A stretch of DNA of 64,000 bases from Myxococcota bacterium. Lineage in GTDB: Bacteria > Myxococcota > Myxococcia > Myxococcales > Myxococcaceae. The notes below the pieces were generated by a model. The model was not told the DNA's origin. It was given only the letters and a program-made list of their open reading frames with translations, and searched no databases. Below, in pieces: positions 51,155-61,250 of the stretch; position 1 is the first letter of the stretch, and each line of letters opens with the position of its first letter. Location of the stretch: assembly GCA_049322255.1 (NCBI GenBank), contig JBMORE010000135.1, positions 1-64,000 on the forward strand, in the 5' to 3' direction. A program made the position numbers and the translations under genes.

Positions 51155-52090
51155 GTGGCGAACGAATCGAAGCCCGCGGTGGTGGTCACCGGCATCAGCG
51201 GCAACTTAGGGCGCGCGCTGGCCAAGCTGCTCCACAAGGAAGAGCGCATCATCGGCGTCGATCGCCGCCCCTTCGTGGGCAAGCCCAAAGACATCGAGAT
51301 GTACCAGCTCGATTTGCGCAAAAAGAAGGCGGAGGACGTCTTCCGCCGCAACCCGGTCAAAGCGGTCATTCACATGGGCATCATGCACGACCCCCGCTTA
51401 AGCCCGGAGGACCATCACTCCTTCAACGTCATCGGCACCACCCGCATTCTCGACTTCTGCGCCAAGTACGCGGTGAAAAAGGTGGTGTTCCTCTCCTCGG
51501 CCAACGTCTACGGCCCCTCGCCCGACAACTCCAACTTCCTCACCGAGGAGGCTCCCCTGATGGCGGCCTCCCGCTTCCCTGGGGTGCGCGACTTGGTGGA
51601 AGTCGACATGCTCGCGCACGGCTTTTTCTGGCGTCACCCGGAGTGCAAGACGGTCATCTTGCGCCCGGTGCACATCGTCGGGCCCACCATCAAGAACGCG
51701 CCCTCGAATTACCTGCGCCTGCGCCGCCCGTGGATGCTCGCCGGCTTCGACCCGATGGTGCAGCTCATTCACGTCGAGGACGCCGCCCGCGCCATGGTCG
51801 CCGCGCTCCAGCCCCAGGCCAACGGGGTCTACAACGTGGTCGGCCCGGGAGAGGTGCCGCTCTCCGCCATCTTCCGCGAGCTGGGGCGCCAGGTGGTGCA
51901 CGTGCCGCACCCCCTGGCCCGCTTCTTCTTGGCCCGCGCCTTCCGCTACCGATTGGCGAGCTTTCCTCCCGAAGAGCTCGACCACATCCAATTCCTCTGC
52001 GCAGTCGATGGCTCGCGCTGGGTCAAAGACATTGGTTGGAAACCCCGCTACACCATGCGCGAAACCATTCGCTCGGTGCTGGGGGAATAG
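51155..52090 (+). CDS. Extended SDR / NAD-dependent epimerase-like protein
   Basis: VVVTGISGNLG, NVIGT, SSANVYG, QLIHVED; canonical YxxxK not evident. Confidence 0.85.
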   Translation: MANESKPAVVVTGISGNLGRALAKLLHKEERIIGVDRRPFVGKPKDIEMYQLDLRKKKAEDVFRRNPVKAVIHMGIMHDPRLSPEDHHSFNVIGTTRILDFCAKYAVKKVVFLSSANVYGPSPDNSNFLTEEAPLMAASRFPGVRDLVEVDMLAHGFFWRHPECKTVILRPVHIVGPTIKNAPSNYLRLRRPWMLAGFDPMVQLIHVEDAARAMVAALQPQANGVYNVVGPGEVPLSAIFRELGRQVVHVPHPLARFFLARAFRYRLASFPPEELDHIQFLCAVDGSRWVKDIGWKPRYTMRETIRSVLGE

Positions 52091-52215
52091 CGCACCCTGT
52101 GGGTATGAGGCGTGCCTGACAGCGATGTCGCGCGCGACGCCGCTTTGCACGGTGGTTTCTTCCCCAGGCGAGGCCAAGTCAGCGGAACTCAAGGCGACCG
52201 GTTCACTGGCGGGGG

Positions 52216-52230
52216 TGGCACCTCGATTGC
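52216..52230 (+). promoter_or_regulatory. sigma54 (-24/-12) promoter with no downstream CDS
   Basis: TGGCAC-CTCGA-TTGC, exact match to TGGCAC-N5-TTGC. Confidence 0.75.
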
Positions 52231-52241
52231 TCATCGAAGGG

Positions 52242-52369
52242 CGTAGATAGGGTTTTCGGAGCCTGAATCGCGACATCTAAAGGCTCCGCGCGAGTGGTAG
52301 GGGGTCCCATTGGGGGACGCCCGACGCCCGCCGCCTCGGCCGGCCCCGAGACGGCGGGCGGTTTTTTTT
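52242..52369 (+). ncRNA. Candidate sigma54-dependent small RNA (three stem-loops)
   Basis: Between promoter and terminator; SL1 CGGAGCCT/AGGCTCCG, SL2 GTCCC/GGGAC, SL3 terminator; no ATG; 5' end inferred. Confidence 0.6.
52325..52369 (+). terminator. Rho-independent terminator
   Basis: CGCCCGCCG-C-CTCGG...CCGAG-A-CGGCGGGCG hairpin followed by T8. Confidence 0.88.
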
Positions 52370-52385
52370 GCGGGCGGCGTCGCTC

Positions 52386-52835
52386 TTAACCGGCGTCGGG
52401 GGCGTCGAGGAGGAAGGGCGCCGCCAGCTCGGGTGAAAAAGGGCCTGTGTCTTGCCGGGCCAGCCACCAGGTGCCGTCGCGGTAGACGAACTCTGAAACC
52501 ACCAGGTCGCTGTGCTCGCTCGCCGAGGGCAGGCGCACCCAGGAAATGCGCGAGGTGACCGTGGCCCGAAGGCCGTTGGTGCTCAGCTTGGCGTCTTCGA
52601 GCTGGTAGTCGGAGACGGTGAGGTCGCGCTCGTCGTTCTGTTGACGGCGGGCGAGGAGGTAGGCCTCCTGTCGCTCGGGGACGATCAGCTCGGCGGCGCC
52701 GTGAAAGTCGCGCCAGCGAATGCGCTGGTGAAAGGTCTCCGCCGCGGGCTTGAGGGTCTCCAGGCTGCCGGTCTTGGGGGTGTGGACGCAGCCGACCAGC
52801 CACAGCAGTCCGAGGAGCGCAAGGAATGTCCGCAC
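52386..52835 (-). CDS. Lipoprotein, hypothetical
   Basis: GTG start, MRTFLALLGLLWLVGC lipobox; FHQRIRWRDF...W...W pattern. Confidence 0.7.
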   Translation of the reverse strand: MRTFLALLGLLWLVGCVHTPKTGSLETLKPAAETFHQRIRWRDFHGAAELIVPERQEAYLLARRQQNDERDLTVSDYQLEDAKLSTNGLRATVTSRISWVRLPSASEHSDLVVSEFVYRDGTWWLARQDTGPFSPELAAPFLLDAPDAG

Positions 52836-52935
52836 GGCGGCGGACGGTAGCACCCGAGCGTTCCGAGACAAGATATCCAGCGGCGATGTTATGTTGACCC
52901 ACCCTCGCGCTCTTGTTCCCAAGGGACCTTCGTCG

Positions 52936-59053: not shown

Positions 59054-59350
59054 TCACCGCTCCCTCGAGTCGGTCAACGCTGGAGTGGACTTTCCGGCAA
59101 ATGCCTTCGCCCGCACCTTGCGCACCTGTCGACGCGCCTGGGCAGTTCGTTGCCGATCCACCACCCCGTCGACCACCACGTCGCCCTCCTTGGCCGAAGG
59201 AGGGAGCGCCGAGCGGGGCAGCGACTCCACCTGCCCGGACTCCAGCCGCACCACCTGGGCGACCTCGTCCTCCAAAAGCTCTATCTGAATCACCTCGCGC
59301 GTGGTGCCGCAGGAGAGCCAAAACGTCGCTGCCAGGCCGACGTGTCTCAT
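59054..59350 (-). CDS. DUF3006-like small protein
   Basis: IELLEDEVA...LPRSALPPSAKEGDVV; ATG at 59350 overlapping the radC stop. Confidence 0.6.
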   Translation of the reverse strand: MRHVGLAATFWLSCGTTREVIQIELLEDEVAQVVRLESGQVESLPRSALPPSAKEGDVVVDGVVDRQRTAQARRQVRKVRAKAFAGKSTPALTDSRER

Positions 59351-60072
59351 CGCGCCGTCCCCGAGAGGTGGACGTGCGCCGAGGCGCCGCCGTCGACTGC
59401 CACCAGCCCCCGCGCGCGCATCGAGCAATACCCCTCGTCTCCCACGACGATGTGGTCGAGCAGGCGTACCCCCAAGATTCGCGCGCCGGCGCACAGTTGC
59501 CGGGTGAGCTGCACGTCCTCCGCCGAGGGCTCGGGGTCTCCGGAAGGGTGGTTGTGCACCAAGACGAGCGCCGAGGCCCGCGTCGCGATGGCCGCTCCGA
59601 ACACCTCTCGCGGGTCGACCAGGCAGAGGTGGGGCGTGCCCTGAGCGATTCGCGCGTCGCGCACCAGCACGTTGCGCGCGTTGAAGCAGAGCGCGTGAAA
59701 CTCCTCGTTCCGCAGGCCGCCCAGCCAGGGTCGCACGTATTGGAAAATCTCCTCGGGCGAGCGCAACCGTGGGCGCGTCTCCGCTGCGCGTTGAGCGCGC
59801 CGGCCCAGCTCCAGCGCGGCCAGCACCGCCGCCGCCTTCGCCGGCCCCAAGCCAGGGTGGGCGCTCAGCTCGTGGGGGTCGCGCTGCACCAGCGCACGCA
59901 AGCCCCCTGCGGTCGCCACCAACCCCTCGGCCAACGAGAGCACCGGGTGCCCTCGAAAGCCGGTGCCCAAGAGCACCGCGAGCAGCTCCGAGTCGGACAG
60001 CGACGACGCGCCCAAGCGCAGCAATCGCTCCCGCGGCCCCTCTGCGTCGGCTTGTCTTTCCGCCGCCTCCAT
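59347..60072 (-). CDS. radC: RadC (JAB/MPN) family protein
   Basis: PRERLLRLGASSLSDSELLAVLL, HhH GLGPAKA, HNHPSGDPEPSAED, LLDHIVVG; ATG at 60072 after GGAGG. Confidence 0.93.
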   Translation of the reverse strand: MEAAERQADAEGPRERLLRLGASSLSDSELLAVLLGTGFRGHPVLSLAEGLVATAGGLRALVQRDPHELSAHPGLGPAKAAAVLAALELGRRAQRAAETRPRLRSPEEIFQYVRPWLGGLRNEEFHALCFNARNVLVRDARIAQGTPHLCLVDPREVFGAAIATRASALVLVHNHPSGDPEPSAEDVQLTRQLCAGARILGVRLLDHIVVGDEGYCSMRARGLVAVDGGASAHVHLSGTAR

Positions 60073-60989: not shown

Positions 60990-61081
60990 CTGTGTGTCAC
61001 CTCGCCGAAAATGTAATACCGAACGACCCGCCGCAACAACTCGGCGACGAGCAGTGCAGCACCAGAGTGCCGTTCCATCTG

Positions 61082-61250
61082 GCCGCCTCCATCGACGCCT
61101 CCTTCGAACCCCCTGGCGGACAGCAACGCCCGTGCCGAAGCGTCGCCCAAGCGCCAAGGGCACCAGTGACGTCTCGTTCATGACGCAGAGGTCGGGCGCG
61201 CGGACGAGCGCCCACGCTCCACCCATGCTTCTTAGCGAGTGGGAATCAGC
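61082..61250. repeat. 169-bp direct repeat, copy adjacent to the cNMP gene
   Basis: Matches 60062-60230 at an offset of 1020 bp; includes the upstream gene's stop codon. Confidence 0.95.

Follow-up and report, generated by a model that had tools for sequence, protein, structure and literature searches.

The window, a stretch of 64,000 nucleotides of Myxococcaceae DNA, holds a 295-bp gap (52091–52385) between the stop codons of two convergent genes. An NAD-dependent epimerase/SDR gene on the forward strand, orthologous to MXAN_1947 (51155..52090), precedes the gap, and a gene for a conserved probable lipoprotein with no match in Pfam or NCBIfam follows it on the reverse strand (52386..52853). 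A preliminary description made from the letters alone had placed a sigma54-driven small RNA here, and its main landmarks were found in the gap, all on the forward strand: a −24/−12 promoter, TGGCAC-N5-TTGC (52216..52230), a predicted RNA of about 128 nt without any ATG (52242..52369, its start taken from sigma54 spacing), a first hairpin, SL1, with a 16-nt loop (52257..52288), and a terminator hairpin, SL3 (52325..52360), followed by T8, the U-tract of an intrinsic terminator (52362..52369). The second hairpin, SL2 (52300..52322), was also present, but is longer than the GTCCC/GGGAC stem first proposed, having nine pairs with one G.G mismatch.

Taken singly, neither the fold of the window sequence (z = −1.60, with 12/200 shuffles equally good) nor the exact promoter pattern, which occurs 12 times in the genome, is out of the ordinary; the locus stands above chance because it is conserved. 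Elsewhere in the window a sigma54-like promoter stretch occurs twice upstream of a radC-like gene, 1020 nt apart (60117 and 61137), and this repetition (59054–60072 and about 61000–61140) suggests a local duplication or insertion.

Distribution of the RNA locus

Homologous loci were collected by synteny, with the SDR protein searched in 40 relatives to give 30 loci, and by a pattern scan of genome contigs, which gave at least 119 stretches; the two sets overlap, and kin within them are not independent. We refer to the genome's own family (Myxococcaceae) as f1 and to the other carrier families as f2 and f4. A core of two hairpins lay downstream of the SDR gene in 23 of the 30 synteny loci (22/23 in f1, this genome included, 1/1 in f2 and 0/6 in other families), and was present in 24/24 f1 relatives once three genomes missed by SDR synteny had been added. 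Carriers in the pattern scan, which include Myxococcus xanthus AM003, Corallococcus, Archangium, Cystobacter, Hyalangium and Pyxidicoccus, were myxobacterial or delta-proteobacterial among the matches listed, bar three with other labels and the same neighbors. The lipoprotein has a homologue in 107/119 pattern loci listed, and the SDR gene is a usual, not an obligatory, neighbor, not being adjacent to the RNA in genome G003.

When 150 genomes of the order were searched with a model of the RNA (R1), matches were obtained in f1 (48/48), f2 (1/1), f4 (12/13) and, weakly, f7 (1/47), with none in f8 (0/30), f3 (0/6), f5 (0/3), f6 (0/1) or f9 (0/1). A broader model (R2) gave the same distribution, and a phylum-wide model search returned only three weak matches outside the order. 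Four of the weak matches outside the three families were inspected (L321–L324) and rejected as ordinary terminator-like hairpins without the AUNGG stem described below. Two patterns searched in viral contigs gave 0 matches.

This genome carries one copy of the RNA. In f4, one of the 12 main copies lies beside the SDR gene; 11 have the sigma54 pattern together with a strong enhancer, and the twelfth has a variant promoter with the enhancer. Because the f4 cassette stands away from the SDR gene with promoter and enhancer, it is an independent gene and not the terminator of the SDR operon; judged by these genomes, the RNA in f4 is relocated together with its promoter. Large f4 genomes also hold extra modules, and five of the nine that lack a canonical sigma54 promoter (L316–L320 and L227–L230) sit 7–65 nt behind a same-strand stop codon, which makes them possible 3′UTR-derived RNAs. 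A second, divergent RNA copy with its own promoter and enhancer was seen in one own-family genome (L225, G017:C35:375220-375298).

Promoter region and predicted regulon

The sigma54 promoter is conserved in homologous loci and was found at a fixed distance upstream of the RNA in 117/119 pattern loci listed, the other two ending at contig edges; its GG and GC are 98% conserved and its spacer varies. An upstream activator site (enhancer) lies at 52115..52132 on the forward strand, with its core, TGACA-N4-TGTCR, at 52117–52130, 99 nt before the −24 element. Among the loci listed, this core occurred with at most one mismatch in 97/124 and with at most two in 119/124. Spacing was 99–102 nt before the −24 element in 77 of 129 matches, and 111–112 or 145–158 nt in the others; in some lineages the site is shifted by about one helical turn, or a second copy lies about 45 nt further up. 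The enhancer of the RNA locus is the best-scoring such site in the genome. A different element had been suggested as the enhancer-binding protein (EBP) site, the palindrome GTCGCGCGCGAC. It is present at 52127–52138, where the conserved TGACA-N4-TGTCR overlaps it through its right half, but with an occurrence in 1/129 homologous upstream regions the palindrome itself is not supported as an EBP site. Likewise, the upstream 9-nt complement of the SL1 loop exists as described, but as a single case in this genome only; the mean longest complement between leader and upstream DNA is 6.8, vs 6.4 in shuffles.

Between enhancer and promoter, mostly 41–42 or 52–53 nt upstream, IHF-like sites with at most one mismatch to the IHF consensus were found in 44/114 distinct upstream regions vs 0.6% of shuffles. 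This genome has a degenerate version with four mismatches (52175..52187, forward strand) at the position taken by a good site in relatives. We consider it highly likely that an EBP bound at TGACA-N4-TGTCR, together with an IHF-type bend, would activate sigma54 polymerase to make an 80–200-nt RNA ending at its own terminator.

In this genome the same enhancer also lies ahead of the sigma54-type promoter of lpxC and those of genes for small, probable lipoproteins; one of these genes is directly behind that for an FHA-GAF-AAA+-Fis activator. A conserved, enhancer-flanked operon (L233, G000:C178:3952-9310) comprises a Ser/Thr kinase, a TPR-like protein, this FHA-GAF-AAA+ activator and a lipoprotein. 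The lpxC gene (L234, G000:C28:3812-4924 in this genome) has a sigma54-type promoter in 24/29 loci, preceded by an enhancer of at least 11 bits in 18/29 (one locus dropped as short). At the same threshold the enhancer was found behind the activator gene in 12/27 loci (three dropped) vs 4% of random windows, and before the kinase of the activator operon in 8/40; three Myxococcus-type loci leave too little room for the site downstream of the activator gene. The activator gene was found in 41/41 genomes searched, and its DK1622 orthologue is MXAN_4020, according to the accessible part of the supplement of PMC11928866. A precedent for sigma54-type control of lpxC is described for Desulfovibrio in the available text of PMC3333781.

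Activation of the RNA seems to go together with that of cell-envelope genes, and the enhancer shared by lpxC and the FHA-GAF activator operon suggests an envelope regulon. Because the same enhancer would control lpxC and lipoprotein genes, an envelope/lipid A regulon probably has this RNA as its non-coding arm. As activator, the best candidate is MXAN_4020, the FHA-GAF-AAA+ protein, acting with its Ser/Thr kinase, an assignment that we hold equally apt to prove right or wrong: it was made by motif position, in 15/27 EBP loci a strong site downstream of the gene is missing, and families in which the RNA was not found have the EBP too. HsfA, whose consensus is given in a figure of PMC9109919, was another candidate considered. 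The motif ties the RNA to lpxC and to an activator that is apparently unstudied. The literature searched, which excludes most subscription papers and theses, gave one irrelevant match for MXAN_4020 and none for MXAN_1946-1949.

Architecture of the RNA and its locus in M. xanthus

Comparison of homologous loci shows that what is conserved is a unit of 61 nt made of two hairpins. The first, SL2, has a 9-bp stem capped by an AUNGG pentaloop (52309–52313 here); the second, SL3, is the terminator, with a 15-bp stem, a CCGGCC loop (52340–52345) and near-invariant closing pairs. In an ungapped alignment of 61 non-redundant cores, 14/24 pairs showed two-sided changes (7/9 in SL2 and 7/15 in SL3) and 95.5% of cells pair; this covariation exceeds all 500 shuffles and all slid controls. 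With divergent copies included, in an alignment fitted to the model, the count was 18/24 pairs. Covariation, proposed at the outset as a check in syntenic intergenic regions, bore out both 3′ stems as conserved and covarying; the U-tract is conserved too. The SL2 loop read AUNGG in 58/61 cores and in 37/37 model-found copies, its third base being any of the four letters. The 12-nt apex of SL3 was kept in 35/37 model-found copies, and the other two, both extra copies, retain CCGGC or CGGC. As the pattern scan required the terminator apex, its invariance there is circular, and the unbiased sets are the synteny set and the model-found copies.

Leader length was more variable. Among the loci listed, 139 of 142 were complete enough to measure (three dropped): 84 have no SL1 and an RNA of about 80 nt, 49 have a variable 5′ insert and six lie between, while the M. 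xanthus RNA reaches about 200 nt. SL1 is an optional, lineage-specific 5′ hairpin without counterpart in most loci. The proposal that its loop acts as a seed did not survive this comparison, SL1 being absent in those 84 loci and without a close match among 49 other long leaders; the z-score of the SL1 leader is 0.4. GGCC tops the optional 5′ hairpin in 22/50 long leaders, in two clades, where 3.2 would be expected; no such loop is present in this genome or in any short form. In 12/139 loci listed, all Myxococcus/Pyxidicoccus-type, two to four tandem 71-nt units lie behind one promoter, and the internal units have changed stems, weakened U-tracts and the same loops bar one 1-nt apex deletion. 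There is no conserved ORF; an AUG can arise only through the free loop base (18/61). REP repeats have many dispersed copies and a GTAG foot; a REP-type repeat was rejected here, with a single copy in this genome, at most four elsewhere and a foot that varies.

In M. xanthus DK1622 the SDR gene is MXAN_1947 and the RNA lies between MXAN_1947 and MXAN_1948, at a predicted position of about 2,283,110 to 2,283,306 on NC_008095.1 (gene coordinates from the available supplement of PMC9548883, with offsets in the corresponding locus L089). The annotated start of MXAN_1948 (2,283,290) falls inside the last hairpin of the RNA, and its frame overlaps the opposite-strand lipoprotein ORF, which suggests that this start is mis-set. 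At L089:650-1507, the annotation of MXAN_1948 appears to begin ~560 nt too early and would mask a conserved lipoprotein gene of the opposite strand. In the DK1622 annotation the RNA is thus hidden under an over-long-looking MXAN_1948, which may explain why it was overlooked.

Of 23 runs listed, four were compared with this region: X2, X3 and X13 are Logan contigs, which span it but say nothing of expression, and only run X23 provides raw reads (150-nt paired, apparently only partly stranded). Depth in X23 was 29–41 and 37–47 over the RNA (two mate orientations), and in the main orientations 44–67 over the SDR gene and 75–127 over the lipoprotein gene. This one run, from one condition, gave no depth peak over the RNA and no read-end pile where the RNA should start. 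In it, 11 molecules have their start at L089:1747, which lies upstream of the promoter and may mark an SDR mRNA end. X23 lends no support to expression under its condition, though libraries of 150-nt paired reads tend to lose short structured RNAs. The start-site tables published with Cappable-seq data (PMC8844925) contain no entry for this locus. The predicted start site can be checked against existing public data.

Possible functions and comparison with known small RNAs

The locus is very probably a small regulatory RNA gene kept in Myxococcus and its relatives, and it is undescribed in the literature searched, from which most subscription papers, theses and bioRxiv supplements fall outside. 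Comparison supports it well as a gene of a new sRNA family, with a predicted transcript. The stand-alone sigma54-type gene other than Pxr that had been proposed agrees with what is conserved (promoter, enhancer spacing, 3′ stems and U-tract), and the cassette survives relocation. Were it a silent relic, or nothing more than the 3′UTR or terminator of the acyltransferase-SDR operon, the depth in X23 that continues from the SDR gene without a peak and the weak fold z-score would be as expected. We regard this as very improbable, as the RNA comes with a promoter, an enhancer and an IHF-like site of its own whose spacing is conserved, its cassette is retained even at loci away from the SDR gene, SL2 covaries, and invariant loops are not expected of terminators.

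How the RNA would work is a matter of more tentative argument. The working part would be the two-hairpin module, whose AUNGG and CCGGCC loops at fixed geometry would be shown to an RNA-binding protein and titrate it, with tandem units and extra GGCC-tipped hairpins adding binding sites. That the RNA is, overall, such a protein-binding decoy is the reading we prefer, at somewhat less than an even chance. Stems covary around fixed loops, the cassette is conserved and mobile as a unit, and a free third loop base suits protein recognition better than pairing. Multiplication of the module two- to four-fold behind one promoter, the excess of GGCC-tipped 5′ hairpins and the five of nine extra f4 modules behind stop codons also fit a decoy. 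Alternatively, an Hfq-independent base-pairing sRNA is quite possible: the CCGGCC apex would kiss mRNAs, perhaps of envelope genes, the top of the stem would unzip, and AUNGG would be a handle for a chaperone or nuclease. SigmaE sRNAs act on envelope genes. The apex is accessible, with an opening cost of 0.0 kcal/mol for 6 nt and 6.0 for 8–10 nt, and its closing pairs keep the same sequence above a lower stem that varies; these invariant pairs fit an unzipping seed as well as a decoy. Pxr works through a loop (PMC5684412, accessible text) and pairs near SD sequences in TRIC-seq (available part of 10.1101/2025.09.11.675593), and the repeated modules of NrsZ carry a loop motif that is essential (accessible text of PMC4253122). 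Tandem modules as such do not single out a decoy either, since RNAs for which pairing with mRNA is proposed have them as well (NrsZ, PMC4253122; Pxr paralogues, PMC5568312; both in the text available). Against pairing, none of the start regions of 4190 crude gene calls in one genome contained an apex complement of at least 9 nt in ungapped duplexes, and the best net energies, with the best 450 of 2597 seeded regions scored fully, were a modest −13.4 kcal/mol. The target prediction that had been suggested as a check therefore yielded no conserved mRNA target in start-region and energy scans of one genome. The kinase of the EBP operon, the top match of the energy scan, was considered as a feedback target and rejected; the site is in 8/27 RNA-bearing genomes, and its synonymous positions vary freely. 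No match to Hfq was found in this genome, in keeping with a decoy. Against a decoy, there was likewise no match to CsrA/RsmA (PF02599; genome 99.6% complete), the familiar protein partner, and run X23 showed no peak. We favor the decoy over loop pairing because of the free base in a fixed loop, the fixed geometry, the amplification and the reuse behind stop codons.

Two further readings involve RNA–RNA contacts. Two molecules could dimerize by a kissing contact of the self-complementary GGCCGGCC apex, or the apex could bind the GGCC-tipped 5′ hairpin of its own molecule, an internal lock to be released by processing. The 8-bp self duplex (−18.3 kcal/mol vs about 6 per partner to open) and complementary GGCC loops in two clades speak for such self-association, but the energies ignore loop strain, GGCC is palindromic so that repeat and complement are indistinguishable, and the 5′ loop is missing from this genome and all short forms; we think it unlikely. 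A sponge for Pxr, with the G-run after the SL2 loop pairing with the C7 loop of Pxr, draws on the co-occurrence of both RNAs in the own family, where many copies have an SL2 3′ arm whose sequence complements the Pxr loop. It was rejected as hardly credible: copies in f2 and f4 have retained the loops but not the G-run, the G-run is enclosed in a covarying stem, and the RNA occurs in families that gave no Pxr match. Returning to the decoy, a wider and speculative version, rather unlikely as a whole, would make the AUNGG-plus-CCGGC module the site of a new RNA-binding regulator in Hfq-/CsrA-less bacteria, with the sigma54 RNA a decoy tuned by tandem copy number, promoterless copies behind stops serving as mRNA-borne sites, and the circuit setting lipid A/envelope output with the Ser/Thr-kinase-controlled EBP. 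The partner of the RNA would reveal how bacteria without Hfq or CsrA use sRNAs.

Decoys of the CsrB/RsmZ and CrcZ kind resemble this RNA in their repeated hairpin loops with a free position and in a scaling by copy number; the loops of CsrB/RsmZ are ANGGA. The RNA described here differs from CsrB/RsmZ in its AUNGG loop with a variable stem base and in having only one to four units. CrcZ has an RpoN site (PMC4253122, accessible text). NrsZ of Pseudomonas is RpoN/EBP-driven, as predicted for our RNA, and resembles it in lying between tail-to-tail genes and in its repeated stem-loop modules with a conserved loop motif, as far as the available text of PMC4253122 describes it; modules of this type occur only in the Myxococcus/Pyxidicoccus-type loci (12/139 listed). 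In NrsZ-type RNAs, processing sets the modules free to pair with the leader of an mRNA. There is no sequence match to NrsZ, the unit here is a two-hairpin module that includes the terminator, and the predicted regulon is lpxC/envelope, not nitrogen.

The TRIC-seq preprint, in the part available (10.1101/2025.09.11.675593), reports MXnc1 and a second candidate as intergenic M. xanthus sRNA candidates. These lie near MXAN_RS24205 (MXAN_4984) and MXAN_RS10995 (MXAN_2275), and were set aside as identities for an RNA between MXAN_1947 and MXAN_1948; the supplementary interaction tables of the preprint may hold reads from the RNA locus. Pxr, the only myxobacterial sRNA with a worked-out function in the literature found, was rejected as a homologue. 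An Rfam search, suggested from the start with Pxr in mind, placed no family near its gathering score and gave no Pxr (RF01812) match up to E 10, and the Pxr model (cut-off 80 bits) had no match up to E 0.5 on five homologous loci, whereas it matches another contig of this genome. That divergent Pxr-like gene (G000:C31:21234-21335, L031:1501-1602; 50.9 bits, below the 80-bit cut-off) has its own sigma54 site and a C7 loop, and sits behind a nuoN-like gene, facing an NtrC-type gene, which is not the published pxrR context. Tandem arrays of Pxr paralogues, with copies about 300–330 nt apart, were observed at G007:C595, G015:C37 and G021:C1:8811591-8812986. The Pxr model matched 23/24 f1 relatives, mostly below the Rfam cut-off, and 0/16 genomes of other families (0/4 in f2 and f4).

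The two RNAs share a myxobacterial host range, a predicted sigma54 promoter with an enhancer region, stem-loops followed by a terminator, and tandem copies in some lineages (PMC5684412 and PMC5568312, accessible text). Pxr is processed from XL through L to S by RNase D, according to the available text of PMC10217877. They differ in their loops (a C-run in all 24 Pxr matches listed, AUNGG and CCGGCC here), in their enhancers, in their setting (downstream of the pxrR/pxrK two-component genes, as against between SDR and lipoprotein) and in the unit repeated, whole genes for Pxr and 71-nt units behind one promoter here. The RNA was found in every own-family genome searched, the model M. xanthus included. 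Because it also occurs in a family that yielded no Pxr match, it may be more ancient than Pxr.
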